Shown here one piece after another: positions 1,658-49,081 of a stretch of 64,000 nt of DNA. Origin of the DNA: an uncultured Gammaproteobacteria bacterium (GTDB taxonomy: Bacteria; Patescibacteriota; Microgenomatia; UBA10105; UBA927). The stretch spans positions 4,302 through 68,301 of the forward strand of contig CAZEVT010000004.1 in the NCBI GenBank assembly GCA_964515005.1, written 5' to 3'. A model generated the notes under the pieces. It worked only from the letters and a program-made list of their open reading frames with translations, ran no database searches and had not been told where the DNA came from. Numbering within the stretch: the stretch's first letter is position 1; every line of letters begins with the position of its first letter. Position numbers and translations under genes: made by a program.

Positions 1658-2272
1658 ATGAAAAAAGCCGGTATAGCCATAGCTGTCTTGATATTTTTGT
1701 TTAGTGCCGCACCGGTGAATGCCGCATGGAGGTTTGGGGATTATTTTCCAAGAAGAACGCCTACCCCCAGAGTGTATCCCACGAGAGTCCAACCAACTTC
1801 AGCATCTGCAAGATCTACAGAGAAGGCAGCGAACCTGGCCGTGCGGACACAGGCAGTCGTCACCCGGATGCTCAATAGCTACCAAAATAGATTGGACAAT
1901 TACAAAGACTTCCTGGCCAAAGTGAAATTACGCCGCGATAAACTTGCGGCGGACGGCAAGGATGTTGCCCGGCTGGATGCGTTTATCCTGCGGGCGACGG
2001 ATAATGCGGCCAATGCGGAGTCAGTGCTCAACAGCGCCAAAACCGCGTTAGGTCTTTTGGATTATACTATGGACATGAAAGAGTTGCGACGCGCGATACA
2101 AACAGAACTTCGCAAGATCCGCCTGGCATTTACGCAGATGCACAAAAGCATGAGTGAAAACGTACGTGCAATTCGTGAATTGTCTTTGAGGTCAACTATT
2201 GCACCGACCAGAACACAACCGACGCGGGGTCCCTTTCCGACAAAACCAGGCAAAAGGGTAGGTCAACAATGA
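1658..2272 (+). CDS. secreted alpha-helical protein (signal peptide), hypothetical
   Basis: N-terminal signal-like segment (IAIAVLIFLFSAAPVNAA); helical, charged remainder; first gene downstream of element copy 1. Confidence 0.6.
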   Translation: MKKAGIAIAVLIFLFSAAPVNAAWRFGDYFPRRTPTPRVYPTRVQPTSASARSTEKAANLAVRTQAVVTRMLNSYQNRLDNYKDFLAKVKLRRDKLAADGKDVARLDAFILRATDNAANAESVLNSAKTALGLLDYTMDMKELRRAIQTELRKIRLAFTQMHKSMSENVRAIRELSLRSTIAPTRTQPTRGPFPTKPGKRVGQQ

Positions 2273-2499
2273 AACATAAACATTTTAGAACCGTTGTGAT
2301 CTTTGTGGTTGTAGCCATTGCCTTTCTGGTCTACATTGTCGGCGTGGTACGCCAAGGCGCCGGATCGACCCAGAGCCGCGCCTCACGCAGTGAAACTTTG
2401 ACCCCCGGGGATGATGCCCTATCACTTGAACAGGACCTCAACAAACTTCAACAGGACCCCGAGCCCGGTGTTGAGCAGGAGCTCAACGCTATCCAGTAA
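2269..2499 (+). CDS. small single-pass membrane protein, hypothetical
   Basis: 4-nt overlap with the upstream gene; one transmembrane helix (VVIFVVVAIAFLVYIVGVV). Confidence 0.5.
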   Translation: MKHKHFRTVVIFVVVAIAFLVYIVGVVRQGAGSTQSRASRSETLTPGDDALSLEQDLNKLQQDPEPGVEQELNAIQ

Positions 2500-2508
2500 C
2501 CCCATCTT

Positions 2509-2799
2509 ATGGACGGTACGCTACGCGTTTCCATCCGGGTACGGAAATACTTGTGGGATGAGTTTGTGCATGACGTGGCCTACTTCCTCTACGCCACCAT
2601 CATCATTTCCAACGCCCTCTCCAAGCGGTACCTCCACCGCTCATTGCAGCAACTTATCGACGGCATATGGGCGATTCCGAACTTCCTTGCCGGAGTTATA
2701 CTTCTGATCCTAGCCGGCGCAGCAGGAATGGTCGTGATGGCGTCCATGTTTGCCATTCCGGTAATTCTGTACCTCGCCTCCACCGGAAGGCTTCAGTGA
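2509..2799 (+). CDS. small membrane protein, hypothetical
   Basis: ORF carrying two hydrophobic helices; third gene of the putative 1658..2799 operon. Confidence 0.5.
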   Translation: MDGTLRVSIRVRKYLWDEFVHDVAYFLYATIIISNALSKRYLHRSLQQLIDGIWAIPNFLAGVILLILAGAAGMVVMASMFAIPVILYLASTGRLQ

Positions 2800-2839
2800 G
2801 GGGAAACATCGTATTTTGAGCGTGAGGGGAGTATACAGC

Positions 2840-2904
2840 CCATCTTACTCAGATTTGTAGTCCGACAGGACGAAAAAGCTGATTAGATGGATGGATACCC
2901 GGAC
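2840..2904 (+). promoter_or_regulatory. conserved structured leader element, copy 2
   Basis: same core as copy 1; closing helix CCAUCU/AGAUGG; inner hairpin GUCC-GACA-GGAC carries a compensatory double change relative to GCCC-GACA-GGGC. Confidence 0.6.
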
Positions 2905-2928
2905 TTTCCTTAATTTATAGGGTATAAT

Positions 2929-3297
2929 TTGAGCATTCCTCTGATGAAATCATATATACGATTTGCACATCGCCTGATGACGCTCATGGATACAAAATTT
3001 AACCTTTTTGGTATCCGGTTTGGGATAGATCCGCTTCTGGATATCTGGCCGGGTTTTGGAAGTTTGATCGGAGCGGGCATTTCCAGTTATCTCTTTTGGA
3101 TAGCCTACAAGCTGAATGTTCCCACGCGGCTCTACTTACGCATGGGTTGGCACATAGCGGTAGATTTTGTATTGGGCGCGATACCGTTTGTAGGATTTGC
3201 CTTTGACCTTTTCTACCGTGCAAATGCAAAAAACCTCGCACTTCTTACCCCATACGTAGATTCAGAAATACTTGAGGGAGTGGTGATGGAGAGATAA
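2929..3297 (+). CDS. DUF4112-like small membrane protein
   Basis: GIDPLLDIWPGFGSLIGAGIS motif typical of DUF4112. The ORF opens at a TTG at 2929, but ATG 2944 (MKSYIRF) is the more likely start. A TATAAT lies at 2923-2928. Confidence 0.6.
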   Translation: MSIPLMKSYIRFAHRLMTLMDTKFNLFGIRFGIDPLLDIWPGFGSLIGAGISSYLFWIAYKLNVPTRLYLRMGWHIAVDFVLGAIPFVGFAFDLFYRANAKNLALLTPYVDSEILEGVVMER

Positions 3298-3366
3298 TCG
3301 AAGTGTATGGAGTTTACACTGAGTTCTACCGAAGTGAGCGCGGGAAGAGTATAATTTGGCGTAGTT

Positions 3367-4050
3367 ATGATCAAAGTTTTGCCTAAAGGTGCCGGTCATA
3401 GAAAACGATTAAGAGATAGATTTCTACAATCGGGCTTAGATGGATTTCTAGATTATGAAGTGATCGAATTGCTTTTAACTTTGGGAACACCCAGACGGGA
3501 TTGTAAGCAGATGGCGAAAGATGTGGTTAAAAAATTTAATGGGTTACGCGGCGCTCTTGATGCCTCAATTGAAGAATTACAAAATATTAGTGGAATAGGT
3601 CCGTATAATGCATTTGGCCTAAAACTCTTTCAGGAAATGTCTGCGCGTCTGGCAAGGGAGCAAATACCAGAAAAGATTACGCTCGATTCTTCAAAAGCTG
3701 TTGCGAATTATTTACAAAAATCTATAGGTTCAAAAAAGAAAGAATATTTTATTATGTTATCTTTAGACGCACGAAATAACTTAATAAAGATTAGTAATAT
3801 TTCAGTTGGTTCGCTTAACGCAAGCATTGTGCACCCAAGGGAGATTTTTAAAGAGGCAATTCAATCTTCTGCTGCGCACATATTAATAGCGCACAATCAT
3901 CCATCGGGTGACCCTGAAGCTTCGCCGGAAGATGTTGCCTTAACGCGACGATTGGGGGAAGCCGCAAAGATTTTTGACATAGATTTACTTGATCATGTTA
4001 TAGTTACAAGAGACAATTTTTTTAGCTTAAAGGAGCAAAATTTAATTTAA
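3367..4050 (+). CDS. radC: RadC-like JAB-domain protein (UPF0758)
   Basis: HNHPSGDPEASPEDVALTRRL JAMM/JAB motif and overall RadC length; first gene of the AT-rich island. Confidence 0.85.
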   Translation: MIKVLPKGAGHRKRLRDRFLQSGLDGFLDYEVIELLLTLGTPRRDCKQMAKDVVKKFNGLRGALDASIEELQNISGIGPYNAFGLKLFQEMSARLAREQIPEKITLDSSKAVANYLQKSIGSKKKEYFIMLSLDARNNLIKISNISVGSLNASIVHPREIFKEAIQSSAAHILIAHNHPSGDPEASPEDVALTRRLGEAAKIFDIDLLDHVIVTRDNFFSLKEQNLI

Positions 4051-4054
4051 ATAA

Positions 4055-4402
4055 ATGTCTGGTATAAAAAAACTTACAGAAAAAATTAAGAAATTTCGAG
4101 ATGAGCGAGATTGGAAACAATTTCATAACCCGAAAGATATGTCCCTTTCGCTAGTTTTGGAGGCGGCAGAGGTAATGGAGCATTTCCAATGGATGAGTTC
4201 AGAAGAAATGATAGTTTATACAAAAAGTAATAAGCATGAAATTGGTGAAGAGTTGGCAGACGTATTATATTGGATTCTTCTCATAAGTCATGATTTAGAG
4301 ATTGATATTATAGATGCATTAGAAAAGAAGCTTATAATTCAAGAAAAAAAATATCCAATAGAAAAAGCTAAGGGGAAGCACACTAAATATAACAAGCTTT
4401 AA
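4055..4402 (+). CDS. MazG-like nucleotide pyrophosphohydrolase domain protein
   Basis: about 115 aa; LEAAEVMEHFQW and EELADVLYWIL helices characteristic of MazG/NTP-PPase all-alpha domains; 4 nt after radC. Confidence 0.7.
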   Translation: MSGIKKLTEKIKKFRDERDWKQFHNPKDMSLSLVLEAAEVMEHFQWMSSEEMIVYTKSNKHEIGEELADVLYWILLISHDLEIDIIDALEKKLIIQEKKYPIEKAKGKHTKYNKL

Positions 4403-4405
4403 ATT

Positions 4406-6265
4406 ATGATCCTTTACGATGCCTCTATAGAACATTTTAATGAAGACGTAATGCAAAATCGTATTGCAGATCGTGCAGCCGAAAAATATCACGCGTACTA
4501 TAAAAGACAACCGGGGGAGTCTGAATATCGTTCATGGGCAATGTCGTTGGCAATTTTAAACAATAGCTTCATCTATGCTGGACTTAAAGATAATCATATA
4601 GTAGTTGAATACGAGCTCCCATTCGCTTCACAAAGGATCGATGTGTTATTGTTTGGACATGATGTTGATGGAAAAGAAAATATAGTGATTATGGAGCTTA
4701 AACAGTGGTCAAATGACAATGTTAAGGATTCAATTTCAGAGGGAAATATAATCGTTAATTATGGAAAATTCAAAAAAGAACAACCCCATCCGGCTTTGCA
4801 GGTGCAGGGGTATTATTTCGGTTTGAAAGATTTTGTTCAAGTTTTTGATGAAACAAATGCTCCAGATTTGAGCGCGACTATCTATGCACATAATTATTCG
4901 AAATACAAAGATGCAACACTCTTTTCTCCTAAATATTCTGAATTAATAAAAACGTTCCCGATATTTACAAAAGAAGATGCTGTCGAACTCGGCAGGTATT
5001 TAAAAAAACGTCTCCAAAGTGGAAAGGGGCAGTTGGTTTATGAACACTTTGCAAGAAGTCCAATCGGCCCATCAAAAAAACTTCTTGATCACACGAGTGA
5101 AATGATTAATAAACAACAAATATTTAACTTAATTGATGATCAAATTGTAGCGTACAACGCCATCATGCACAAAGCAAAACAGTTAGCAAAAATAAAAAAG
5201 AAATCAGTAATAATCGTAAAAGGTGGTCCTGGCACAGGGAAGTCAGTCATCGCGCTCGAGGTTATGGGTGAGCTTTTAAGGCGGGGAAAAACGGTTATGC
5301 ACGCTACTGGTTCGTCCGCGTTTACAAACACACTTAGAAAAATTGTTGGCGTTCGCGCACGAACTCTCTTCAAGTTTTTTAATGGCTTTACAACAACCAA
5401 ACCAGATTCTCTTGATGTTCTTGTCTGTGATGAGGCACATCGTATTAGAGAGACTAGTGTGAACAGATACACTCCTAGAGATCAAAGAACAAATTTGCCT
5501 CAGATCGACGAATTATTAAGAATAGCAAAGCTAAATATTTTCTTTATCGATGAAAATCAAACAGTTCGCCCAAATGAAATCGGCAGTGTTGCAATCATTA
5601 AAGAAGCTGCCAGACGCTTTGAGATCGATGAGTCAGAAATAATTGAATTTGAATTAAAAACCCAGTTTCGTTGTTCTGGGTCGGATGCATATTTACAATG
5701 GATTGATAAAGTTTTAGATATTCAAGGTTCTGACATCGCACACTTTGATCCTAAAATGGAATTTCGTATTTTTGAGTCTCCGTCTGAAATGATGACGGAA
5801 ATTAGAGCTAGAAATCAAGAGAAGGGCAATTCTGCAAGAATAGTTGCTGGGTTTTGCTGGCCATGGAGTAATCCAAATAGTGACGGGTCCTTAGTAAGTG
5901 ATGTAAAGGTTGGTAATTTTGAAATGCCGTGGGAGAAAAAAAATGAGTTTTGGAAATGGGCAACTGACCCGAGTGGAATGGAACAAGTTGGAACAGTGTA
6001 TACGTCACAAGGTTTTGAGTTTGACTATATAGGCGTCATATTCGGTAACGATTTAGTGTATGACTTGAAAAAACAAAAATGGATTGTAAAACCAGAAAAT
6101 TCACACGACACAATGGTTACAAGAAACAATGAAGACCTAGATAGACATTTAAAAAATGTATACCGGGTACTTATGTCCAGAGCTCACAAAGGGGTTTATG
6201 TATATTTTGTGGATAAGGCAACTGAAGAGTACTTTAAAGCTAATCTTAAAGAAGAACAAAAATGA
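4406..6265 (+). CDS. DUF2075-family ATPase/helicase-like protein with an N-terminal PD-(D/E)xK-like nuclease domain (Schlafen-like architecture)
   Basis: N-terminal QRIDVLLFG...IVIMELKQW (D...ExK); Walker A GGPGTGKS; Walker B/DEAH-like LVCDEAHR; C-terminal TVYTSQGFEFDYIGVIFG typical of DUF2075/UvrD-like C-termini. Confidence 0.8.
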   Translation: MILYDASIEHFNEDVMQNRIADRAAEKYHAYYKRQPGESEYRSWAMSLAILNNSFIYAGLKDNHIVVEYELPFASQRIDVLLFGHDVDGKENIVIMELKQWSNDNVKDSISEGNIIVNYGKFKKEQPHPALQVQGYYFGLKDFVQVFDETNAPDLSATIYAHNYSKYKDATLFSPKYSELIKTFPIFTKEDAVELGRYLKKRLQSGKGQLVYEHFARSPIGPSKKLLDHTSEMINKQQIFNLIDDQIVAYNAIMHKAKQLAKIKKKSVIIVKGGPGTGKSVIALEVMGELLRRGKTVMHATGSSAFTNTLRKIVGVRARTLFKFFNGFTTTKPDSLDVLVCDEAHRIRETSVNRYTPRDQRTNLPQIDELLRIAKLNIFFIDENQTVRPNEIGSVAIIKEAARRFEIDESEIIEFELKTQFRCSGSDAYLQWIDKVLDIQGSDIAHFDPKMEFRIFESPSEMMTEIRARNQEKGNSARIVAGFCWPWSNPNSDGSLVSDVKVGNFEMPWEKKNEFWKWATDPSGMEQVGTVYTSQGFEFDYIGVIFGNDLVYDLKKQKWIVKPENSHDTMVTRNNEDLDRHLKNVYRVLMSRAHKGVYVYFVDKATEEYFKANLKEEQK

Positions 6266-6963
6266 GACAAATACAAGATGACGTCCTTTCGTATAGGGAA
6301 ATGTGCGATGCGGAAAAGGTTCAAACGCTTCAGAGAGGAATGAATTTTCGCCTCAATTCGTCATATTCAGTTATTTTAATGTCCCAGAGATCAAATGCAC
6401 CTTATGCAGATAGGATACATTCTGATGGAGTAACCATTGAATATGAGGGACATGATGTATCGCGCCAGTCATACACCCACAATCCAAAGCTTGAAGATCA
6501 ATCGCATCAGCTACCCTCAGGCAAGCTCACGCAAAATGGTTTGTTTATTGATTCAATTAATAAATACAAAGAAAATAAATCGACACCCGAGCGCGTAAAG
6601 GCGTACGAAAAAATTATGAATGGTGTCTGGTCATTGAAGGGCTATTTTGATCTCATTGACTACAAAATAGTGAATGACGGCAAGCGCAACGTATTTCGAT
6701 TTATTTTACGACTCTCGGATAAACAATCCCCTGATACGAATATTCAGAACATGCAGCTTAGTCATACACGTCTTATTCCATCTGAGGTAAAAAAAGAAGT
6801 GTGGAAGAGAGATGAAGGTAAATGTGTCAAATGCGGATCTCGAGAAAATTTACATTTCGATCACGATTTGCCCTTTTCACGAGGTGGAACAAGTCTAACA
6901 GCGAAGAACGTACGACTATTATGTTTGAAACACAATTTAGAAAAATCAGCGAAAATTCAGTAG
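6262..6963 (+). CDS. HNH endonuclease with an uncharacterised ~170-aa N-terminal domain
   Basis: C-terminal CVKCGS...LHFDHDLPFSRGG...LLCLKHN HNH motif; ATGA overlap with the upstream ATPase gene. Confidence 0.8.
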   Translation: MRQIQDDVLSYREMCDAEKVQTLQRGMNFRLNSSYSVILMSQRSNAPYADRIHSDGVTIEYEGHDVSRQSYTHNPKLEDQSHQLPSGKLTQNGLFIDSINKYKENKSTPERVKAYEKIMNGVWSLKGYFDLIDYKIVNDGKRNVFRFILRLSDKQSPDTNIQNMQLSHTRLIPSEVKKEVWKRDEGKCVKCGSRENLHFDHDLPFSRGGTSLTAKNVRLLCLKHNLEKSAKIQ

Positions 6964-7204
6964 CATTTTCTTAAACGAATTTTACCCGACACCGGTGGGG
7001 AGGGTTGAGGTGGAGGGAATGGTAAGACATAGATGCCATCGGTACGCTCAGCACAACTGAATACTTAATAATCTTCAATGCTAGAACTCCAAGGTAAAAA
7101 ATTTATCTATCACATGATTGAGTATCTTTGATACTTTTTGATATAAAAAAGCTATATTGTTTTTTGGCAGTCTTTAGATCATACTGCTTAAGTAGCTCAA
7201 TTTT

Positions 7205-7495
7205 ATGCTTGATTATGATGATATGACTACCAAAGAATTAAAAGAAAAAGAAACAGTAAGAACAAATGATCTGCTTTTAGAACTCAACAATAGAGTAGGA
7301 GTAATGATTTCTCTGCTTTTACGGATGGTGCAACAAGACAAATCATCAATAAGCCTAAAAGATCAAATTCAAATTCTTAACAATCTAGGTTTACGCCCTC
7401 GTGACATTGCCGCTATCCTTGGTAAGACCCCTACTCACATCAGTAAAGAACTTGTTGGCATAAGAAAAACAAAAACAACAGCAACCGAGGAGTAA
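7205..7495 (+). CDS. small sigma70-region-4-like HTH protein, paralog 1 of a tandem array
   Basis: ILNNLGLRPRDIAAILGKTPTHISKELVGIRK resembles the sigma70_r4/LuxR-type HTH; start may instead be Met-7. Confidence 0.55.
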   Translation: MLDYDDMTTKELKEKETVRTNDLLLELNNRVGVMISLLLRMVQQDKSSISLKDQIQILNNLGLRPRDIAAILGKTPTHISKELVGIRKTKTTATEE

Positions 7496-7501
7496 TCGAC
7501 T

Positions 7502-7717
7502 ATGAGCGACCTGCAATTACTTGAACAAATATCTAACAAGCTGAGTGCATTAATTGCGCTTTCTCTACCAAGTGACGTAATAAAAATGTCTACAGCAGAC
7601 GGAGAGCGATTACTCAGACGATTCGACCTAAACAATCAAGCTATAGCAGACATTTTGGGAACTACAAAGAGAACAATTGAAGTGATGAAGAGTAGAGATC
7701 AAAAAAATAATAAATAA
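7502..7717 (+). CDS. small sigma70-region-4-like HTH protein, paralog 2
   Basis: ERLLRRFDLNNQAIADILGTTKRTIEVMKSR; 7 nt after paralog 1. Confidence 0.55.
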   Translation: MSDLQLLEQISNKLSALIALSLPSDVIKMSTADGERLLRRFDLNNQAIADILGTTKRTIEVMKSRDQKNNK

Positions 7718-7719
7718 AC

Positions 7720-7908
7720 ATGGAAGACACAAAGGAAATCGAAAAAACGCTTAATAATCTCAAAAAATCAATTGATACTTTGATTTTGCTTGAGCTTTGT
7801 AAACTCGGTGCCGGCGCAAAAGAAATTCGAAATATTTTAGGGGGTTTGGACAATAATCAATTTTCCGCTATAAATGCAGCTATCAAAGGAGGCAAACAAC
7901 ATGGATGA
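7720..7908 (+). CDS. small HTH-like protein, paralog 3
   Basis: LCKLGAGAKEIRNILG; 3 nt after paralog 2; same N-terminal amphipathic helix pattern. Confidence 0.5.
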   Translation: MEDTKEIEKTLNNLKKSIDTLILLELCKLGAGAKEIRNILGGLDNNQFSAINAAIKGGKQHG

Positions 7909-8080
7909 AAAAATTATCGGCATCCTAGAGGATATAAAAAAATTAGTAATTCTTGGTTTAATTACACGCGGTGTTCAGGGAAAAGACATAGCCCAGGTAA
8001 TCGGGGTAGATAAAAGCACGATCACGAGAATAGCCCCAGCACGAAAAATAAAAGTGAATAAAATAGATGAGCAGATATAA
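7901..8080 (+). CDS. small HTH-like protein, paralog 4
   Basis: LGLITRGVQGKDIAQVIGVDKSTITRIA. The ORF track opens at 7874, but ATG 7901 gives an 8-nt overlap with paralog 3 and is preferred. Confidence 0.5.
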   Translation: MDEKIIGILEDIKKLVILGLITRGVQGKDIAQVIGVDKSTITRIAPARKIKVNKIDEQI

Positions 8081-8477
8081 TCCCGATTTAATAAAAAAAA
8101 TAAGTCAAAAACTTAACAAAGCCCCGACCTATATTCGAGAGCAGATAAGCCGACGTGCATTACGACATAATATTTTATCAGAGGCAGAATTAGCCAATTG
8201 GGCAAGATCTTTAGGAATTTCTGCGGATTCATATATCCGCACATTATCGCCAAGTGTTCAAAGTCAAATTTTATCAACTCCCTCACCTGTTAAAAATTAT
8301 TTTTCTAAACCCTCAGTACTAAGGATTGTTCAACTTGGTAAAAAAGAAAATGAATGGTATAACCTTTGGTGGGTGCAGCTACTAATAGCCTTTTTTGTAG
8401 TAGGGATATTAGCAAGTACAATTTCTCAAATTTTAGGGGTATATTTTACAAATTCACTCGGTTTAACTAAACCATAA
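8067..8477 (+). CDS. membrane-anchored relative of the HTH array (N-terminal HTH-like segment plus C-terminal TM helix)
   Basis: SEAELANWARSLGISADSYIRTL followed by the hydrophobic WWVQLLIAFFVVGILASTISQILGVYF; overlaps paralog 4. Confidence 0.5.
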   Translation: MSRYNPDLIKKISQKLNKAPTYIREQISRRALRHNILSEAELANWARSLGISADSYIRTLSPSVQSQILSTPSPVKNYFSKPSVLRIVQLGKKENEWYNLWWVQLLIAFFVVGILASTISQILGVYFTNSLGLTKP

Positions 8478-8581
8478 GTCGCAGACATGCCTTGAAGCCT
8501 AAATTATTTCCCCACGGCGTGGATTGCCGGAGAAATGATTACACACCGGGTGTGAAATAGCTAGACACCTAATAAAAATTT

Positions 8582-8609
8582 ATGTATAAACTTTCTCCAT
8601 CAGATTTTG
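8582..8609 (+). repeat. 28-bp direct repeat, copy A (5' end of the nuclease gene)
   Basis: atgtataaactttctccatcagattttg matches 10253..10280 at 27 of 28 positions. Confidence 0.8.
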
Positions 8610-9229
8610 CTTATTTATACGAGGAGTGTAAGCATTGCTATTACCTGAAAATCCGTAAGGGCATTGGGCGGCCGAGCATGCCGTTCCCCGGAGTATTTGG
8701 CGCGATCAATACCAGATTGCAGGGGAATATGGTGGGGAAGGACTTGCGGGAGCTTTCGGATAAACTCCCCGAGGGGACCGTGGAGAGTCAGGAGGGGTAT
8801 GTGCAATCCGCCGTTATTGCCGGAACCACGGTATTTGTCAAAGGCAAGTATGATCTTCTGGTCAGACTCCCGGATGGCACGTACATGATAGTTGATCTCA
8901 AACTCAGTACTCCGAAAGATGAGAAGGTTGCCAAATATCAATCGCAACTATGGTCGTATGTATATGCCTTTGAACATCCTGCCGCGGGAGCACCAAAGAA
9001 GATAACGCGGGCGGGACTCCTGATTTTCTATCCCGATGCCGTTTCATTTGCCGGCGGCGTCGCTTCCCTTACGTTTCCGCCCACGTGGCTGGCGGTACCG
9101 GTGGACCGCGATGCATTTGCGAAGTTTATCGTAGGAGTGAACGATCTTTTGGAAGGCCCAACGCCGCCGGAGAATACGGATTGTAATTGGTGTAAATATA
9201 GACAAGCTGTTAAAGTGCTTGAAAACTGA
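8582..9229 (+). CDS. PD-(D/E)xK nuclease of the RecB/Cas4-like family with N- and C-terminal Cys pairs
   Basis: motifs KYDLLV, IVDLKLS (DxK) and QSQLWSYVYAF (QxxxY); CKHCYY near the N-terminus and CNWCKY near the C-terminus. Confidence 0.65.
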   Translation: MYKLSPSDFAYLYEECKHCYYLKIRKGIGRPSMPFPGVFGAINTRLQGNMVGKDLRELSDKLPEGTVESQEGYVQSAVIAGTTVFVKGKYDLLVRLPDGTYMIVDLKLSTPKDEKVAKYQSQLWSYVYAFEHPAAGAPKKITRAGLLIFYPDAVSFAGGVASLTFPPTWLAVPVDRDAFAKFIVGVNDLLEGPTPPENTDCNWCKYRQAVKVLEN

Positions 9230-9281
9230 GTCATGATAAATAGGAAATCAACCCGACGGGTTACATTGATTTGCTAACTCT

Positions 9282-9398
9282 ATGATCCTCAATAAAACCA
9301 TCCTGATTCTGGAAGATGACCTCCTTACGCTTTCAAAGATATTGGATCGGTTAGCAACGATTGAGCAGGATCAGCCGTATGATTATTCGGAAAAATAG
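9282..9398 (+). pseudogene. 38-aa remnant resembling a response-regulator receiver N-terminus
   Basis: MILNKTILILEDDLLTLSKILDRL... then a stop; looks like the first beta-alpha unit of a REC domain only. Confidence 0.4.
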
Positions 9399-9410
9399 TA
9401 TAATTGACCC

Positions 9411-10247
9411 ATGACCACCCGTGACATCGAAACGACGAAAATTGCCCTGTTCAAAGGGAAAAAGATAAGAAAAATTATTTATAACAACGACTGGTGGTTT
9501 TCGATTATTGACGTCATTGCAGCGCTTACGGGAAATGCTCGTCCGAGAAAATATTGGAGCGATCTAAAGAAGAAGCTTATTAAAGAAGGCTATTTTGAAG
9601 TGTCCGAAAAAATCGGACAGTTGAAATTGGAAGCTCCTGACGGGAAAAAGCGCGAAACTGACTGTGCAAACACAGAAACACTTTTCCGCATTGTCCAATC
9701 CATTCCCTCTCCGAAAGCAGAACCGTTTAAGCGCTGGCTGGCAAGAGTGGGGTATGAGCGAATCCAAGAAATAGAAGATCCGGAGCTTGCTACCAAGAGA
9801 ACGCGGATACTTTATAAACTGAAAGGATATCCAAATGATTGGATTGAAAAACGCATGCGCGGGATAGCGATTCGCGAAGAATTGACCGATGAATGGCAAA
9901 AACGAGGAGCAAGACATCAAAAAGAATATGAAATTCTTACCGCTGAGATTTCCAAAGCGACGTTCGGCGTTACTCCGAGTGGTTATAAAAAGCTGAAAGG
10001 TTTGAAGCGGGAGAATCTGCGCGATCATATGGATGATTTTGAGCTAATTTTTACCATGCTTGGTGAGCGATCAACGACGGAAATTCACCGTACAGAAGAT
10101 TCGAGGGGTGTGCCAAAACTAAAAGCAGATGCTAGAGCCGGTGGTGATATAGCCGGCGGAGCAAGAAAAAAGTTGGAAAAACGCTTAGCTCGTTCGATTG
10201 TTTCAAAAAATAATTATTTACCAAAGAGAAGAAAATCGTTAAAGTAA
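9411..10247 (+). CDS. Bro-N domain protein (phage antirepressor-like)
   Basis: IRKIIYNNDWWFSIIDVIAALTGNARPRKYWSDL and SPKAEPFKRWLARVGYERIQ match Bro-N signatures; TATAAT at 9399-9404. Confidence 0.75.
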   Translation: MTTRDIETTKIALFKGKKIRKIIYNNDWWFSIIDVIAALTGNARPRKYWSDLKKKLIKEGYFEVSEKIGQLKLEAPDGKKRETDCANTETLFRIVQSIPSPKAEPFKRWLARVGYERIQEIEDPELATKRTRILYKLKGYPNDWIEKRMRGIAIREELTDEWQKRGARHQKEYEILTAEISKATFGVTPSGYKKLKGLKRENLRDHMDDFELIFTMLGERSTTEIHRTEDSRGVPKLKADARAGGDIAGGARKKLEKRLARSIVSKNNYLPKRRKSLK

Positions 10248-10252
10248 TCTCT

Positions 10253-10280
10253 ATGTACAAACTTTCTCCATCAGATTTTG
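10253..10280 (+). repeat. 28-bp direct repeat, copy B
   Basis: atgtacaaactttctccatcagattttg; opens a 54-codon orphan ORF (MYKLSPSDFVSSGSG...) that lies antisense to the 10271..10816 gene. Confidence 0.8.
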
Positions 10281-10816
10281 TCAGTTCCGGGAGTGGGTTC
10301 CGGGGGGAGATTTTCTTCTCCGCTTGGGGCGGCTGCGCCGTAGTCACCGGGCTTGAGCCATTCGACATACGTGCAGCCGGTGGCCTGCCGCTTGGCCGCA
10401 TCCCAACCGCTGGTTGAACATTTTTTCATCTTCTTGCCCGTGGCCGTCGTGTACAGGACGAGCTTCTTGCCGCATTCCGGGCAATCTTCGTTGAGCTCTT
10501 CGGTCGTGCCGTTTATCCATTCGATATAGTCACACCCTTCGGCCTTCTTGGTGTCTTTGTTCCAGACGTTGGTCGAACATTTCTTCATCTTCTTTCCAAA
10601 CCGGGTGACTGCAAAAACAAGAGGCGAGCCGCATGTGGGACATTTCTCGTTCAAGGTTTTGGGCTCGGGCATGATCCATTTCACATAATCACAGCCTTCG
10701 TTTTTCTTCGTGTCTTTGTTCCAGGAGCCGGTAGAACAGCGCTGAAGCTGACGGCCGGATTTGGTTTCGACAACTTCTCCCAGAGGGGAACCACATTTGG
10801 GACACATATCTGCCAT
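10271..10816 (-). CDS. triple topoisomerase-type C4 zinc-ribbon protein
   Basis: three tandem repeats of CPxCGSPL...GKKMKKCST..WNKDTKK.EGCDY.EW resembling zf-C4_Topoisom. Confidence 0.7.
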   Translation of the reverse strand: MADMCPKCGSPLGEVVETKSGRQLQRCSTGSWNKDTKKNEGCDYVKWIMPEPKTLNEKCPTCGSPLVFAVTRFGKKMKKCSTNVWNKDTKKAEGCDYIEWINGTTEELNEDCPECGKKLVLYTTATGKKMKKCSTSGWDAAKRQATGCTYVEWLKPGDYGAAAPSGEENLPPEPTPGTDKI

Positions 10817-10876
10817 AGGATAAATGTACCAGACTTGGAGGAAGTTTCATACACCTGATATACTCCTCCTTATTGT

Positions 10877-11416
10877 ATGCGTATGGTGTGGAAGAATTTT
10901 TTCTTTGGAATGCTTCTTGGGGGACTGATGCTCTCCGGGGGAGTCGCGGTGTGGGGTAGGCAGGAAGCAAAAGTACTCAGCGTGACCGTTGCTCTTCCGA
11001 CAAGTACCCCTACTTTTAATCCCACGCCGACGCCACTACCCACGCCTACACCCACGCCAACAAAAAAACCTACACCCAAGCCCACTCCCACGGCAACTCC
11101 CATTCCAGTTCCCACCGCTACCTCCCAAGAGATAAACGGGTTTATAGACCGATTTTCTTCCCAGTACGGCGTGGACCCGAATGTGCTACGGCACACGGCC
11201 ATCTGTGAGTCCGGATTTAACCCGGGGGCCACAAACGGCTCCTATGTGGGCCTCTTCCAGTTTGGCCCCATCACGTGGCAAAAATACAGGAGTCTCATGG
11301 GAGAGGACGCAAGTATCGTACTCCGGGTAAATGCAGAAGAAGCGGTCCAGACGGCGGCCTACGTGTATTCAACTGGCGCATCCCGCATCTGGCCCAATTG
11401 CGTACCGGGGAGTTAG
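10877..11416 (+). CDS. membrane-anchored transglycosylase-like (Rpf/SLT-like lysozyme fold) protein with a Pro/Thr-rich linker
   Basis: N-terminal TM helix; PTPTP linker; AICESGFNPGATNGSYVGLFQFGPITW resembles the transglycosylase-like domain catalytic region. Confidence 0.65.
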   Translation: MRMVWKNFFFGMLLGGLMLSGGVAVWGRQEAKVLSVTVALPTSTPTFNPTPTPLPTPTPTPTKKPTPKPTPTATPIPVPTATSQEINGFIDRFSSQYGVDPNVLRHTAICESGFNPGATNGSYVGLFQFGPITWQKYRSLMGEDASIVLRVNAEEAVQTAAYVYSTGASRIWPNCVPGS

Positions 11417-11417
11417 G

Positions 11418-12164
11418 TTACGAAGAAATGTATGCGTGGTAGATGTTTTGGGCGCCTTTTCCCTTGAGTGCTTTATCGGTGTTTGCAAGAACCCCGTCGT
11501 AATCGGATATGATGACGACATTATCATCTAAGCGTGACAATTCTTTTTTAAGAAACGCATAGGCGTCCCGTGGGGTGGCGCCTTGTACGCCATCTTTTAC
11601 ATAGAAATCGTGCAGCTCGATGTTGAGGGCGGCCACCGAGGAGACAAGGGACCGGATATCATGGATATGATCCTCTTTATCGTCAAGGACATACGCGTGG
11701 AGCGCCGTATCACGGGGTTTTTGTGCGCGGAGTTCCTGTAAAATAGTGAGTAGCCCTTCCCGTTTGTTTTCCGTCATGCACCGGAAGTTTTCGCGGGGAA
11801 CCCCGAGATCAAAAATCCCGGTTCTTTCTGCCTTATTTGTTTGCCAGCCCACGTCTCCCACCGTCCAGACGATAAGCTCGTTTCCGTGAGTGCGGGCGAG
11901 TGTTGTGAGTTTGGCGACAAAAGGCTCCTCTCCTGCGCGCATGAGACAATCCGGAGTACATGCGGTTTCCAGAGCTTCGCGGACTGTTTCGAAAAGATCC
12001 GGTCTGTCCCATGACAGCTCGCTGCGCAGACTCTCGGTCATGTTGCCTACACTTGCCGGCCAGTTAAACCCACCGGCTGGCGTGAGACCGTACCACGCTT
12101 TGGCGGCGATCGTCTCTTGAATGATCCGAAGGGCGTGTGGTTTGGGAGCAACTTCTATGACCAT
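11418..12164 (-). CDS. hypothetical protein (248 aa)
   Basis: intact ORF. The C-terminal ISDYDGVLANTD looks like a HAD motif I but sits at the wrong end of the protein, so it is left unassigned. Confidence 0.5.
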   Translation of the reverse strand: MVIEVAPKPHALRIIQETIAAKAWYGLTPAGGFNWPASVGNMTESLRSELSWDRPDLFETVREALETACTPDCLMRAGEEPFVAKLTTLARTHGNELIVWTVGDVGWQTNKAERTGIFDLGVPRENFRCMTENKREGLLTILQELRAQKPRDTALHAYVLDDKEDHIHDIRSLVSSVAALNIELHDFYVKDGVQGATPRDAYAFLKKELSRLDDNVVIISDYDGVLANTDKALKGKGAQNIYHAYISS

Positions 12165-15397: not shown

Positions 15398-16300
15398 ATG
15401 ACTACCGGTTCAACGTTAAAAATCCGCATAGCCGAGCTCAAAAAGAGATTCGATACGCTTAGGAGGGGCAAAGACGCGCTCCTTACCGTCCTTGATGAGG
15501 CTGAAGTGCCGGAAAGCGTCTATAACTCCAATGCCATAGAAAACTCTACCTTAACCCTGAAACAAACGGAGCAAATTCTTTTGGAGTTGGAAGTTTCCGG
15601 TCATATAACACTTCGTGAGGTATATGAAGCGAAAAATCTGGCACGAGTCATCGGATACACCCGTGAAAAAGCGAAAGAAAGCAATGTAACCATAGATGTC
15701 ATTCTATTTTTACATAAAATGCTGTTGTCCCATATCCATGAATCAATTGCGGGGAAATTTCGTACACTTGGGCAATACGTGCGCGTGGGCACATTTATAG
15801 CCCCGCCGCCTGAACACGTAGTGAAACTCATGGATGAGTTATGTATGGCATATGAAAATGACTTTAGCGGGTACTTTTTGGATAAAATTGCAATGTTCCA
15901 TCTTGGATTTGAAACGATTCATCCGTTTGTTGATGGGAACGGCAGAATCGGTCGGGAGATAATGAACTATCAATTACGTCGACTGGGATTTCCGCGGGTA
16001 ATCATACGGGATAAGGAAAAGCAAACGTATTACCGATCATTCATTGAGTACCGCGATTATAAACGTACCAAAACGATGGAACGTGTCGTTGCACTCGCAA
16101 TCATGGAGTCACTTCATAAGAGAATTGCGTATCTCGTTGGTGCAACGATTATTCCTTTGTCTGATGTGGTCCGGGATCAACATGCAGCGCCATCGGCTGT
16201 GTTTAACGCCGCAAAACGTCAGACGATCCCTGCGTTTCGGGAAAAAGGCGTATGGAAGATCGGGAAAGAAGAGATGGAGCGTAGTCAGAAACCCGTCTAA
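15398..16300 (+). CDS. Fic/Doc (Fido) family protein
   Basis: HPFVDGNGRIGR Fic motif. Confidence 0.9.
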   Translation: MTTGSTLKIRIAELKKRFDTLRRGKDALLTVLDEAEVPESVYNSNAIENSTLTLKQTEQILLELEVSGHITLREVYEAKNLARVIGYTREKAKESNVTIDVILFLHKMLLSHIHESIAGKFRTLGQYVRVGTFIAPPPEHVVKLMDELCMAYENDFSGYFLDKIAMFHLGFETIHPFVDGNGRIGREIMNYQLRRLGFPRVIIRDKEKQTYYRSFIEYRDYKRTKTMERVVALAIMESLHKRIAYLVGATIIPLSDVVRDQHAAPSAVFNAAKRQTIPAFREKGVWKIGKEEMERSQKPV

Positions 16301-43479: not shown

Positions 43480-44778
43480 ATGACTATTGCATTTATCGGA
43501 CATGGCTACGTGGGATTGGTTACCGCTTCAGTGTTTGCGGATCTTGGCAATACCGTATGGGTCGTGGGCAGGACGCCCGAGAAAATCGAGAAACTCAAAA
43601 AAGGCATCGCGCCGTTTTTTGAACCCGGGCTTTCGGAGCTCGTCAAACGAAATGTTCTCTCTGGGAGACTCAAATTTACGCTGGATTACCAAGAGGCGGT
43701 TAGTCCTTCCGATATCATATTCATTTGCGTCGGCACGCCTTCGGGGCAAAACGGCGAGGCGGATCTCACGAACGTTTACGAGGCCGCAGAAAGTATTGCG
43801 AGAAACATGGTGGGATACAAAGTCGTGGTGACCAAAAGCACCGTCCCACCGGGAACAAACAAAAAAGTCGGCGACATTATCGGAAAGTATAAAACCGAGG
43901 GGTCGTCCTTTGCCATTGCGTCTGTTCCTGAATTTCTGCGGGAGGGGTCGGCAATTGAAGACACGCTCCACCCTGACCGCGTGGTTATTGGCACGACATC
44001 TGACCGGGCCCGGGAACTCCTTCTTGAGTTGCATAAGCCGATTACGACCAAAATGGTACTGTGTAATGTAGAAACCGCTGAGCTTATTAAATACGCGTCC
44101 AATTCACTCCTGTCGACCAAGATTTCATTTGCCAATGCCATTGCCTTTTTGTCAGAGAAGGTTGGGGCAGACGCCGAGCGCGTGCTTGAGGCGGTGGGTT
44201 TGGACAAGAGACTCGGCAGAAGCTTCCTCTTCGCAGGAGTCGGCTACGGCGGCAGCTGTTTCCCCAAAGACGTGAAGGCGCTTGTTGCTATTTCCCAGGT
44301 CCACGGATATGATTTTAAACTTCTGAAGGCGGTGGACCAGATAAATACCGATACGGCAAAACACTTTGTCGATAAGATCGTCAGTCATTTTCACAAGAAG
44401 CTCCACGGGAAGAAGGTTGCGGTTTTGGGTCTTTCATTTAAGCCGAATACAGACGATATGCGGGAAGCTCCCTCAATAAATATTATTTCTTCACTCACCA
44501 AAGAAGGGGCGTCAGTCGTCGCCTATGATCCGGTCGCCATGGATAATGCCAAAAAGGTGTTGCCAAAAACTGTCTCGTATGCATCCGATGCATATGAAGC
44601 CGTACAAGACGCCGACGCGGTCGTTATCCTCACCGAATGGAATGAGTTCCGGCAGCTTGATTTGGTACGGCTCGCCAAAGGTTTGAAGCAACTGGTTTTG
44701 TTTGACGGAAGGAATATCTATGAGCCCGCAAAAATAAAACAGCTCGGATTTACGTATTACGGTGTGGGAAGAATGTGA
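43480..44778 (+). CDS. ugd: UDP-glucose 6-dehydrogenase
   Basis: IAFIGHGYVGLV N-terminus; GGSCFPKDV catalytic Cys motif. Confidence 0.9.
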   Translation: MTIAFIGHGYVGLVTASVFADLGNTVWVVGRTPEKIEKLKKGIAPFFEPGLSELVKRNVLSGRLKFTLDYQEAVSPSDIIFICVGTPSGQNGEADLTNVYEAAESIARNMVGYKVVVTKSTVPPGTNKKVGDIIGKYKTEGSSFAIASVPEFLREGSAIEDTLHPDRVVIGTTSDRARELLLELHKPITTKMVLCNVETAELIKYASNSLLSTKISFANAIAFLSEKVGADAERVLEAVGLDKRLGRSFLFAGVGYGGSCFPKDVKALVAISQVHGYDFKLLKAVDQINTDTAKHFVDKIVSHFHKKLHGKKVAVLGLSFKPNTDDMREAPSINIISSLTKEGASVVAYDPVAMDNAKKVLPKTVSYASDAYEAVQDADAVVILTEWNEFRQLDLVRLAKGLKQLVLFDGRNIYEPAKIKQLGFTYYGVGRM

Positions 44779-44795
44779 TACAATAAACGGAGCAT

Positions 44796-45752
44796 ATGGC
44801 AAAGAAAATACTTATTACCGGTATTGCTGGGTTTGTTGGAAGTCACTTGGCAGAGTTTCTTCTGAAAGAAGGGCATGAGATTTATGGGTTGGTACGTCCA
44901 AGAAGCAAAACCGATTACATAGAGCCGATTATAAGTAAACTCCATCTTGAGGACGCGGACCTCATGGATACGCATAGTTTGTATACCCTCATCTCCAAGA
45001 TTAAACCCGACTATATTTTTCATCTTGCGGCGCAATCATTTGTTCCCACCTCATGGGTGTCGCCGTCCGTCACGCTGGAAGTAAATATAGTGGGGAGCGC
45101 GAACTTGTTTGAAGCCGTACGGATGTCCGGCATAAGTCCCACAATTCAAATTGCCTGTTCGAGCGAAGAATACGGGCTCGTGCATCCGGATGAGCTGCCG
45201 ATCAAAGAGACTAATCCCTTGCGTCCGCTTTCCCCATATGCGGTGTCTAAGCTCGGGATGGATTATTTGGGCTATCAATATTATCAATCATACAAAATTC
45301 GCATTATGCGGACGCGTGGGTTTAACCACACAGGCCCCAGGCGAGGCGATACATTTGCCGAATCGAACTTTGCCAAACAAATTGCACTTATTGAAAAGGG
45401 GAAACAGGAGCCGGTCATTCATGTGGGTAATTTAGAGGCCTCCCGGGACTACACGGATGTCCGGGATATGGTCCGCGGATATTACTTGTCCGTTGAAAAA
45501 TGCGATCCGGGAGAGGTGTATAACATCTGCACCGGTAAGACGATAAAAATAGGCGACATGCTCAATCTTCTCCTTTCATTTTCCAAAAACAAAGTGACGA
45601 TCAAAGAAGACCCGTCGCGCATGCGGCCGTCTGACGTACCCGTCCTTTTAGGAGACAATACGAAGTTTGTAACAAAGACCGGTTGGAAACCCACAATCCC
45701 TTTCGAAAAGACAATGGAGGACCTCCTCAACTACTGGCGTGAGCGGGTCTGA
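44796..45752 (+). CDS. NAD-dependent sugar epimerase/dehydratase (GMD-like)
   Basis: ILITGIAGFVGSHLAEFLL...YAVSKL SDR extended-family motifs. Confidence 0.8.
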   Translation: MAKKILITGIAGFVGSHLAEFLLKEGHEIYGLVRPRSKTDYIEPIISKLHLEDADLMDTHSLYTLISKIKPDYIFHLAAQSFVPTSWVSPSVTLEVNIVGSANLFEAVRMSGISPTIQIACSSEEYGLVHPDELPIKETNPLRPLSPYAVSKLGMDYLGYQYYQSYKIRIMRTRGFNHTGPRRGDTFAESNFAKQIALIEKGKQEPVIHVGNLEASRDYTDVRDMVRGYYLSVEKCDPGEVYNICTGKTIKIGDMLNLLLSFSKNKVTIKEDPSRMRPSDVPVLLGDNTKFVTKTGWKPTIPFEKTMEDLLNYWRERV

Positions 45753-45762
45753 CGGGACACTT

Positions 45763-46875
45763 ATGAAGGTAGTTATCGTCCTTCCGACCTACAACGAACG
45801 AGAAAATATTATTCCGCTTCTTGGTGAGTTGAGACAAGTCTTCCGTGGGGTAAAGAACCATACTATTTCATATTTGGTCGTTGACGACACATCACCCGAC
45901 GGTACCGCCGCGGCGGTTGACGAATACAGAAAAAAACATTCGGATGTGTCCATCATTGTGGGGAAGAAAGAAGGGTTGGGAAAAGCCCTACTCCGCGGCA
46001 TGACGCACGCGGTGGGTGAGATGGGGGCCGATGTCATATTACAGATGGACGCGGATCTGTCGCACGACCCAAAAGTAGCCCCGGAGTTTTTGAAAGCGAT
46101 AGACAACGGTGCCAATTTCGTCGTCGGCAGCCGCTATATTCCCGGCGGATCAATTCCGGACAATTGGGGCATTCACCGGAAGATTTTCAGCCGTGTGGGA
46201 AACGCCATAGTCCGGTTCGGGCTGGGGCACCCGGAGGTCCATGATTGGACAGGGGGATACCGGGCATACAGCAAAACATTTTATCAAGACCTCCACGCGC
46301 AGGTAAAAGGATACAGCGGGTATGTGTTTCAGATAGCATTCCTGCACAAAGCAATATTGCAAGGCGCCAATATAACCGAGGTGCCCATACATTTTACGGA
46401 CCGGCGCTTCGGACACTCAAAAATAGCCCCGGCAGAATATATAAAAAACGTCCTGAAGTATGTTGCGATTGTCCGCATGCGCGGCTCGTTCGGAAAGTTT
46501 TTGGTCGTCGGTGGATTCGGATTTATCATAAACGCGGTACTTCTGGTTGTGCTTCATGAGATTGCCCGAATGCCTGCAGTTGCCGCAAACCTCGTGGGCT
46601 CGGCGGTAGCCATATTTTCCAACTATAACTTCAATAATATGTGGACCTTCAAACACCGGAAAATTTTTGGCGTACGGAAATATGTGAAACAGCTGGTTTA
46701 TTTTTACGGAACGAGTGTGTTTGGCGTCGTCGTTATTCAAACCGGAACGATTTGGCTGGGTGTGCACCTTGTGGACCCCAGATATTACTTCTTATATTTT
46801 CTTATCGGTACCGGATTTCTCATGTTGTGGAATTTCACCATGTATTCAAAAGTTATTTGGAAAAAAATTAAATGA
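45763..46875 (+). CDS. GT2 glycosyltransferase (Dpm1-like) fused to a C-terminal GtrA-like 4-TM domain
   Basis: MKVVIVLPTYNERENI...VVDDTSPDGT GT2 N-terminus; C-terminal hydrophobic GtrA-like helices. Confidence 0.8.
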   Translation: MKVVIVLPTYNERENIIPLLGELRQVFRGVKNHTISYLVVDDTSPDGTAAAVDEYRKKHSDVSIIVGKKEGLGKALLRGMTHAVGEMGADVILQMDADLSHDPKVAPEFLKAIDNGANFVVGSRYIPGGSIPDNWGIHRKIFSRVGNAIVRFGLGHPEVHDWTGGYRAYSKTFYQDLHAQVKGYSGYVFQIAFLHKAILQGANITEVPIHFTDRRFGHSKIAPAEYIKNVLKYVAIVRMRGSFGKFLVVGGFGFIINAVLLVVLHEIARMPAVAANLVGSAVAIFSNYNFNNMWTFKHRKIFGVRKYVKQLVYFYGTSVFGVVVIQTGTIWLGVHLVDPRYYFLYFLIGTGFLMLWNFTMYSKVIWKKIK

Positions 46876-48329: not shown

Positions 48330-49081
48330 TGAAACCGTTGAAACTATCAATTGTCATACCTGCATATAATGAGGAAACGAATATCCGTTTAGGCGCGCTT
48401 GATAAGGTTTCCAGGTACCTCGATCAGCAAACATTCTCTTGGGAGGCCCTTATTGTTGACGACGGATCGGGTGACGGCACTCCTGAGTTACTTGACGCCT
48501 TTGCCAAGGCCAACAAAAGATTTTCCGTTATCCACAATCCACACCAGGGCAAAGCGGCAACGGTGATCACCGGTGTGATGGCAGCCGCGGGAGACATCGT
48601 CCTGTTTACCGATCTTGATCAGGCGACGCCGATTACCGAGCTTGCCCAGATACTTCCTTGGTTTGACCGGGGGTTTGACGTGGTCATCGGGTCACGGAGT
48701 GCTCGCAGGCAAGGAGCACCGTTCACCCGCCGTATTATGGCGCGCGGGTTTATGATGATCCGGGGACTCATCCTGGGTCTTCGGGGAATCGTCGATACGC
48801 AGTGCGGCTTTAAAGCATTTAGGAAAGGCGTTGCCCGTGACATTTTTCAAAGGCTGAAGCTCTACGGTGCGCGACATGCAGCGAGCGGGTCTATGGTGAC
48901 GGCGGGATTTGATATCGAAGTACTCTTTTTGGCTAAAAAATTGGGGTATAAAATCCGCGAAGTCCCGGTTGAATGGCATTACGTTGAGACACGCCGGGTC
49001 AACCCGATCGTCGATTCAATACAGGGATTTTCTGACATCCTGAAGATCCGCGTCAACGCATGGCAAGGACTGTATGGATAA
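48326..49081 (+). CDS. GT2 glycosyltransferase (DPM/DPG-synthase-like)
   Basis: LSIVIPAYNEETNI...LIVDDGSGDGT. Confidence 0.85.
   Translation: MMKPLKLSIVIPAYNEETNIRLGALDKVSRYLDQQTFSWEALIVDDGSGDGTPELLDAFAKANKRFSVIHNPHQGKAATVITGVMAAAGDIVLFTDLDQATPITELAQILPWFDRGFDVVIGSRSARRQGAPFTRRIMARGFMMIRGLILGLRGIVDTQCGFKAFRKGVARDIFQRLKLYGARHAASGSMVTAGFDIEVLFLAKKLGYKIREVPVEWHYVETRRVNPIVDSIQGFSDILKIRVNAWQGLYG

Follow-up and report, generated by a model that had tools for sequence, protein, structure and literature searches.

Variable slots at conserved genes

Defence islands flanked by core genes are reportedly known both as the core defence hotspots of Pseudomonas aeruginosa and from the defence island repertoire of E. 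coli. The dusA-specific integrase islands insert at the start of a conserved gene and supply it with a new 5′ end; islands of this type bring a dedicated integrase and recombine at a core that is fixed and conserved. In naturally transformable bacteria, homology-facilitated illegitimate recombination and the so-called minimal mobile elements involve exchange via conserved flanking genes.

The locus described here lies in a 64-kb stretch of DNA (hereafter, the window) from the Patescibacteria (candidate phyla radiation) and resembles each of these systems in part. As in the core-gene-flanked hotspots, a conserved gene (a nuclease and a zinc-ribbon gene, ZnR) borders a slot that differs between close relatives, the contents of which comprise an SLFN helicase with HNH, toxin-antitoxin pairs, a UvrD-like helicase, Bro-N/PDC-S13, Fic, RhuM and restriction-modification; unlike in those hotspots, the flanking nuclease is itself partly duplicated as 5′ stubs in ~15% of loci, and there is no conserved synteny on either side. 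The succession of an orphan 5′ fragment, cargo and a full gene in direct orientation is also that of the dusA-type islands, whereas at the present locus the scans found no integrase, the stubs differ in length and the DNA core lacks conservation. One homologous crossover (near nt 575 of the nuclease) and one join at an ATTTT microhomology, both of which we infer, would correspond to homology-facilitated illegitimate recombination, although the usual product of that process lacks a duplicated 5′ end of the anchor gene. Pseudogene stubs, remnants of duplication and deletion in variable islands, likewise consist of a short 5′ fragment by cargo, in direct orientation to an intact copy, without a recombinase and without a conserved DNA site. 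The stub in the window differs from the usual ones in that its start codon is preserved and in that it runs into a convergent host gene, the last codons of which it alters. A search of the literature on defence-island hotspots in Patescibacteria yielded nothing specific to a hotspot at this nuclease.

The direct repeat and its surroundings

The features of the locus are given below in window coordinates.

3367-8477, + strand: low-GC defence island with RadC, MazG-like, SLFN/DUF2075 helicase and HNH genes, and five small ORFs (7205-8477)
8581-8609, + strand: left repeat copy, consisting of base -1 and the first 28 nt (MYKLSPSDF) of the intact nuclease gene
8582-9229, + strand: nuclease A (copy A), 215 aa, PD-(D/E)XK, Cas4-like, chimeric (Pfam PDDEXK_1, E 1.7e-10; Cas4 models; alignment)
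9240-9267, no strand assigned: conserved, terminator-like hairpin motif ATAGGAAATCAACCCGACGGGTTACATT, also present 3′ of the nuclease in loci L002-L004
9282-9398, + strand: 38-codon ORF, the first 69 nt of which (to 9350) are the 5′ stub of a 130-aa gene (family match; stub in L086)
9411-10247, + strand: Bro-N domain protein, 278 aa (PADLOC candidate defence family PDC-S13, E 5e-114)
10252-10280, + strand: right repeat copy, orphan nuclease 5′ stub, matching the full gene of L176 in strand and in its side of ZnR
10253-10417, + strand: 54-codon ORF opened by the stub and antisense to ZnR; by position, a fusion of the stub with ZnR antisense
10271-10816, - strand: zinc-ribbon gene (Top1-type, three repeats), C-terminus altered by the junction

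The initial annotation had described a 28-bp direct repeat around the nuclease and Bro-N genes, which is borne out by a repeat search of the window: the repeat measures 29 nt (8581-8609 and 10252-10280), is identical at 28 of the 29 positions and has its two starts 1671 nt apart. The copies differ once, at T8587 versus C10258, a synonymous TAT/TAC change in codon 2, and the right copy begins 5 nt past the Bro-N stop (10247). With up to three mismatches allowed, the 64-kb window contains exactly two copies, a number reached in 0 of 100 dinucleotide shuffles.

An assembly artefact, which had been raised as one possible cause, is excluded. JGI contig Ga0136847_12708613 (L001) matches window positions 3191-10754 with one mismatch over 7564 nt, and two Logan contigs of SRR6155509 are 100% identical to the window, L172 to 2067-8731, spanning the left repeat copy, and L171 to 9109-10460, spanning the right one. 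Since both junctions recur in other assemblies, the repeat is real and confirmed by three independent assemblies from two samples. The shortness of the repeat is the single point that could be made for a chance match or a mis-assembly, the probability of which is negligible given the shuffles, the junctions seen in all three assemblies and the length of the repeat, which at 29 nt stays below that of the k-mers usually responsible for a collapse.

The nuclease and its orphan 5′ stub

Nuclease A belongs to a very conserved family of ~223 aa in Patescibacteria, represented by 681 proteins in a database search and by 80 genome loci. It carries four cysteines (C16, C19, C201 and C204), and its C-terminus is short, without the ..DIPF tail usual in the family. 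It scores 27.6 bits against TIGR00372 (Cas4), below the cut-off of 65, and no cas genes were seen in the nuclease neighbourhoods; it is Cas4-like in fold family only, and not a member of Cas4 itself. The N-terminus, MYKLSPSDFAYLYEECKHCYYLK, is invariant in the family alignment, and the 28-mer is therefore simply the start of the gene.

When compared with the allele on contig L176, a relative described below, nuclease A is ~90% identical at the nucleotide level up to nt 570, with 25-30 of 30 positions identical per 30-nt block. Past nt 570, identity falls to 21/30 and then to 14/30 at nt 601-630, with C.WC.YR still encoded, and GC drops from ~0.50 to 0.39 where nuclease A switches allele (near nt 575). 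This switch resembles the trace of a homologous crossover with a different nuclease allele, and the foreign stretch appears to extend from nuclease nt ~575 over the terminator motif, the gene stub and Bro-N as far as the 28-nt stub. Another reading of the short C-terminus, that of a truncated "long stub", is not established: short tails occur in ~20 of 77 alleles, in the alignment the tail of P0027 resembles that of nuclease A, and the terminator motif is common to L002.

With regard to the right repeat copy, a nhmmer profile built from 77 gene starts matches 10253-10280 with its positions 1-28. This copy, too, encodes MYKLSPSDF, invariant in the alignment, and is an orphan 5′ stub of a gene from the family of Cas4-like PD-(D/E)XK nucleases. 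The identity of the other 76 alleles to the stub has a median of 22/28 and reaches at least 27/28 in only one, so that the stub derives from the same or a very close allele. The L176 allele is 26/28 identical to the stub.

The positions also agree with the earlier statement that the right copy, after Bro-N, opens a 54-codon ORF antisense to ZnR. This ORF is most likely not a gene and should not be annotated as one. The stop codon of ZnR (10271-10273) falls within the right repeat copy, and the last three ZnR codons (DKI*) are therefore read from the antisense strand of the stub. The ZnR tails, ..PTPGTDKI* in the window, ..PTPAS* in L176, ..PTSAP* in L086 and ..PPSV* in L087, place the junction at the native ZnR stop codon, and the C-terminus of ZnR in the window is best annotated as a fusion artefact of the rearrangement. 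Exact-protein look-ups of ZnR with both start codons gave no match.

Contents of the bracketed unit

The initial annotation had taken the 38-codon ORF for a receiver-domain fragment. It is indeed a gene fragment, containing the first 23 codons of a 130-aa family, but the receiver label is weak: the family has no Pfam hit, and its PDB match to a receiver domain has an E value of 0.045. The family sequence breaks at codon 23, as it does in the stub of the same gene in L086, and the ORF therefore represents a native stub and no random fragment. That the 38-codon ORF is itself a stub, as in L086, and that the terminator motif after copy A is common to the nuclease loci L002-L004 are both in keeping with the history favoured below.

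Bro-N is a widely spread single-gene cassette with more than 570 close metagenomic relatives, and its DNA homology to them ends with the coding sequence (9423-10247). Neither the nuclease nor the 28-mer was found near Bro-N in the best 80 metagenome Bro-N loci, and an obligate Bro-N/nuclease pair was rejected on this basis, the nuclease being nearby in 0/80. In L082, Bro-N immediately precedes the nuclease start, and in L046 it precedes a nuclease stub, which likewise fits the history favoured below. Both the nuclease family and the 28-mer are absent from IMG/VR; a phage or plasmid origin was rejected, as that database contains no nuclease homologue, no 28-mer and no Bro-N/stub junction.

Upstream island and close relatives

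The island left of the nuclease has a GC content of 0.30-0.40 versus a background of ~0.50, and its SLFN/DUF2075 helicase is PDC-S41/Nhi/AbiO-like according to PADLOC. The gene order of the window, with DUF4112, RadC, MazG and SLFN followed by the nuclease, is also found in L012.

Contig L176, which comes from the same JGI sample as L001, carries a UvrD-like helicase and then a full-length nuclease (223 aa) that is convergent with ZnR, tail-to-tail and with overlapping stop codons. Its positions 2366-2832 (ZnR) show 93.6% nucleotide identity to window 10288-10754, and its positions 1690-2300 (nuclease) 88.9% to window 8582-9192. L176 is the decisive relative, having a whole nuclease on the same strand at the site of the 28 nt of the window. 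A single resident nuclease meets each of the two syntenies, that with L012 in upstream order and that with L176 in convergence with ZnR. In both the window stub and the L176 nuclease, the upstream gene ends 3-5 nt before the ATG. Two nuclease copies that differed in what lay upstream of them would be expected to give a repeat with its left edge at the start codon.

Other relatives have a different gene at this place. L087 (ZnR 89% at the amino acid level) has MazG, SLFN and then an HNH gene facing ZnR, with 46 nt separating the stops; its ZnR flank contains no nuclease, Bro-N or 28-mer. L086 (ZnR 90%) has the 130-aa gene convergent with ZnR, in the order 5′ stub of the 130-aa gene, PhdYeFM/ParE-like pair, full 130-aa gene and ZnR; there is no nuclease in the ZnR flank, and the likeness to the 28-mer is weak and gapped (22/28, shuffle p ~0.01), with better matches elsewhere in the locus. 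An ancestral lone stub beside ZnR in L086 was rejected for this weak likeness, which better chance matches in the same locus surpass, and a shared ancestral stub is unlikely because L176, which is more closely related, carries the gene in full. The 3′ flank of ZnR and the conserved nuclease can be seen as borders of a fast-changing defence-island slot in Patescibacteria.

Recurrent 5′ stubs in Patescibacteria

A profile of the first 90 nt of the gene detected extra nuclease 5′ fragments in 12 of 80 other Patescibacteria genome loci, always on the strand of the gene and always upstream of it, and no 3′ or internal fragments of the family were seen. Seven loci have a stub of 28-30 nt, a dispersed short repeat and a -10-like box just 5′ of the real start; the spacer in these loci is the dispersed repeat CCTTCGR..CTCAGGR, which is present elsewhere in the same genomes. 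A leader RNA made of stub and spacer was considered for the seven loci and rejected, with a weak consensus fold (-6.6 kcal/mol) and no Rfam hit. The longer stubs precede cargo, namely Fic; NYN; Bro-N and Fic; DUF5678 and an aspartyl protease; Fic and RhuM; or an SMC-like ATPase. Nuclease neighbourhoods have no conserved synteny across the phylum and are rich in restriction-modification, Fic, Bro-N and RhuM genes.

Given stubs, defence or toxin cargo and a full gene in 12/80 loci, recombination in defence islands seems to recur at the 5′ end of the nuclease. The sole peculiarity of the window is that its stub lies downstream of the intact nuclease. It shares its break nucleotide with the seven short stubs, a coincidence to which a rough estimate gives a chance of a few percent. 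While the finding in the window is itself ordinary, the recurrent nuclease 5′ stubs constitute a modestly interesting lead.

A more far-reaching proposal, which we regard as rather improbable, is that in Patescibacteria the 5′ end of the nuclease, and that of other probably leaderless genes such as the 130-aa gene beside ZnR, may serve as a landing pad for small integrase-free defence or toxin cassettes, the 1671-nt unit of the window being one of them. Such a cassette would bear the first 28-110 nt of the gene, form a circle via recombination between stub and gene, and re-enter other genomes by host homologous recombination, giving arrays of stub, cargo and full gene. If cassettes were indeed moved by host recombination alone, this would help to explain the exchange of defence genes in small genomes with few classical mobile elements.

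Proposed history and alternatives

From the structure of the locus, the arrangements in its relatives and the chimerism of copy A, all of which are directly visible, a history can be proposed in which the right 28-mer is a recombination scar, the orphaned 5′ stub of a nuclease that was once tail-to-tail with ZnR. We consider this somewhat more probable than its contrary, and the supporting geometry is that the stub shares its strand and its position relative to ZnR with the L176 nuclease. The starting point would be a resident nuclease abutting ZnR, with a variable slot for defence cassettes upstream. Donor DNA carrying a related nuclease allele, the terminator, the 69-nt stub of the 130-aa gene and Bro-N would then have recombined with the resident nuclease, most simply as a circular or tandem 1671-nt unit and by one homologous crossover near nuclease nt 575. 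A donor of this form would leave nuclease sequence at both ends of the inserted stretch. The crossover would yield the chimeric copy A (8582-9229) with the terminator, the gene stub and Bro-N behind it. Of the downstream recombinant nuclease only the first 28 nt would have remained, the rest being lost at once or in a subsequent deletion of ~640 nt. The join was probably made via the microhomology ATTTT, which occurs at nuclease nt 23-27 and again in the last codons CCA TTT TAA, and would have removed the ZnR stop and created three new ZnR codons. Long direct repeats around Bro-N would presumably be unstable, and the loss of most of one copy may have stabilised the cargo.

Several observations fit this history less easily. 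The junction GATTTTG|TCAGTTCC departs from what an ATTTT deletion predicts for an L176-like sequence by a 2-nt length difference and by substitutions; L176 is a relative and not an ancestor. If the stub came from the divergent allele that supplied the 3′ part of copy A, its 27/28 identity to the 5′ end of copy A would be unusual (~1-9% of alleles), and the donor would have to be a mosaic or the 5′ ends homogenised. No genome contained a two-copy intermediate or the proposed circle, and the donor was not found either.

The tandem-duplication scar suggested by the initial annotation comes nearest to the evidence in that the right copy is the remnant of a second nuclease, but the different 3′ allele of copy A points to recombination with other nuclease-bearing DNA rather than a plain duplication of 8581-10251. 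In the plain version, 8581-10251 (nuclease, terminator, gene stub and Bro-N) would have been duplicated head to tail within one genome and the second unit then deleted from nuclease nt 29 through the ZnR stop. The spacing of 1671 nt equals one unit, the second copy starts precisely where the unit restarts, and 28/29 identity suits a recent copy of the same allele; yet the left edge lies exactly at the start codon (-1), which would be a coincidence for a random endpoint, a second event, the deletion, is still needed, and neither the allele switch near nt 575 nor the nuclease abutting ZnR in the closest relative is explained. Copy A is chimeric, and the single nuclease of L176 stands at the position of the stub and not at that of copy A. 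We judge a plain tandem duplication unlikely. Somewhat less likely still is that the stub was never a full gene in this genome and owes its closeness to the resident nuclease to accident, having arrived in an imported flank of ~0.9-1.1 kb, which would consist of Bro-N and the first 28 nt of a donor nuclease and would have entered between the nuclease region and ZnR by illegitimate recombination. The wide spread of the Bro-N cassette, with DNA homology confined to its coding sequence, its place directly upstream of a nuclease or stub in L082 and L046, and the variable 3′ flank of ZnR in L086 and L087 are compatible with such an import. It is weakened by the lack of a nuclease or 28-mer at all of the best 80 metagenome Bro-N loci, and by the nuclease native to this very position in L176, which would turn an unrelated import into an unnecessary coincidence.

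The initial annotation had also proposed a duplicated att-like core, for which no support was obtained. The 28-mer would in that case be the crossover core of a circle-forming, integrase-free 1.67-kb element (nuclease and Bro-N), mobilised in trans either by a site-specific recombinase or by its own nuclease, and such an origin is very unlikely. The direct repeats do bracket a compact two-gene unit, and this, stubs of 28-30 nt with the same break nucleotide in seven other loci, as well as the recurrence of 5′ stubs in 12/80 loci, might be cited in its favour. However, scans of all ORFs between 3367 and 10816 with Pfam, PADLOC and NCBIfam found no recombinase in or beside the bracketed unit, returning only the PD-(D/E)XK nuclease, Bro-N, SLFN helicase, HNH, RadC and MazG. 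Stub lengths elsewhere are 28, 46, 73, 78, 83, ~100 and ~110 nt, and there is therefore no fixed crossover point. By codon entropy, synonymous variation in codons 3-9 (the 28-mer) equals that at invariant residues elsewhere in the nuclease; a conserved att-like DNA site was rejected on account of this normal entropy and an unremarkable dyad symmetry. Relatives that might have retained a single core copy have no lone 28-mer in the ZnR flank, with nothing in L087, the weak likeness in L086 and a whole nuclease in L176, and the absence of the nuclease family and the 28-mer from IMG/VR points in the same direction. The block of nuclease and Bro-N is thus best not regarded as a discrete mobile element with att sites.

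Under the favoured history of a nuclease reduced to a scar beside ZnR, the repeat would have arisen as a by-product and have no function itself. At most, it might allow a rare 1.67-kb loss of the nuclease and Bro-N, a length of 29 nt being about the minimum for homologous recombination.

Stub, cargo and full-gene order

In L086, a close relative of this genome by its zinc-ribbon gene, the zinc-ribbon gene is adjoined by a 130-aa gene that has a 5′ stub (a short 5′ gene fragment) of its own, 23 codons long. A PhdYeFM/ParE-like pair separates the stub from the full 130-aa gene (10622-11932 for the whole arrangement, minus strand), and such a layout of stub, cargo and full gene is common to the 130-aa gene of L086 and the nuclease loci. 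In seven loci, the spacer that separates the 28-nt stub from the nuclease start is a short repeat, CCTTCGR-N(3-12)-CTCAGGR, of which no copy is present in the window. This repeat is dispersed, and is sometimes tandem with a spacing of approximately 24 nt, including three tandem copies at approximately 2440-2513 of L086.

Copies of the CCTTCGR-N(3-12)-CTCAGGR repeat
L019: 5954-5972
L023: 3128-3181
L032: 5955-5973
L036: 1692-1710
L041: 5956-5974
L083: 5171-5188
L086: four copies
L009, L120, L131, L133 and L135: also present

Upstream motifs and −10-like boxes

The motif ACACCGGGTGTKRAATAGC combines a short hairpin with a −10-like box. Extended −10-like boxes (TGTAGAATA, TATAAT) were also observed, and these end approximately 7-10 nt ahead of the start codons (ATG) of the nuclease and Bro-N genes.

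Positions of the upstream features
Window 8543-8561: ACACCGGGTGTKRAATAGC motif, upstream of the nuclease
L086 11095-11111, minus strand: ACACCGGGTGTKRAATAGC motif, upstream of the 130-aa gene
Window 9397-9410: −10-like box
Nuclease starts of L013, L018, L032, L041, L053, L083 and others: −10-like boxes

The ACACCGGGTGTKRAATAGC motif was not found in any further locus except L001, L170 and L172, which are contigs duplicating the window. The short distance between the −10-like boxes and the ATG suggests that the nuclease and Bro-N mRNAs are leaderless or near-leaderless. The repeat homology that stubs share with genes begins at the ATG.

C-terminal tails of the nuclease

Most members of the nuclease family (L002, L005-L009 and most of L006-L083) have an acidic C-terminal tail ending in D(I/L)PF, similar to the DDDIPF sequence at the extreme C-terminus of bacterial SSB. 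Short and unrelated tails are found in approximately 20 of the 77 nuclease alleles, including that of the window (9199-9229).

Genomic surroundings in relatives

In L005 (1294-3458), the nuclease lies between FtsK_alpha-matching ORFs of 143 and 253 aa and a 96-aa FtsK_gamma ORF, and it looks as if it took the place of the ATPase portion in an FtsK-like gene. A Fic-family gene of the window (15398-16300) clusters with the Fic cassettes located between stub and nuclease in L006, L048 and L084. Positions 1-5602 of L087 (reverse complement), another close relative by the zinc-ribbon gene, correspond to a glycosyltransferase cluster at window 44255-49783. This cluster adjoins MazG and SLFN in L087 whereas it is approximately 40 kb distant in the window, and thus the left flank of the low-GC defence island is not the same among close relatives.

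Contig ends and possible strain variants

Along 7564 nt, the JGI contig L001 matches the window at all but one base, despite a different call of the HNH gene, which is whole in the window (6262-6963, 233 aa) and was called as two genes in L001 (3072-3773; 124 and 97 aa). Window position 10754 is the end of both L001 and L176, which come from one JGI sample and have different arrangements. The other end of L001 (window 3191) coincides with the low-GC island's left border, and the Logan contigs break at window 8731 and 9109, both within the nuclease. These contig ends suggest that strain variants co-exist in the JGI and Logan samples.
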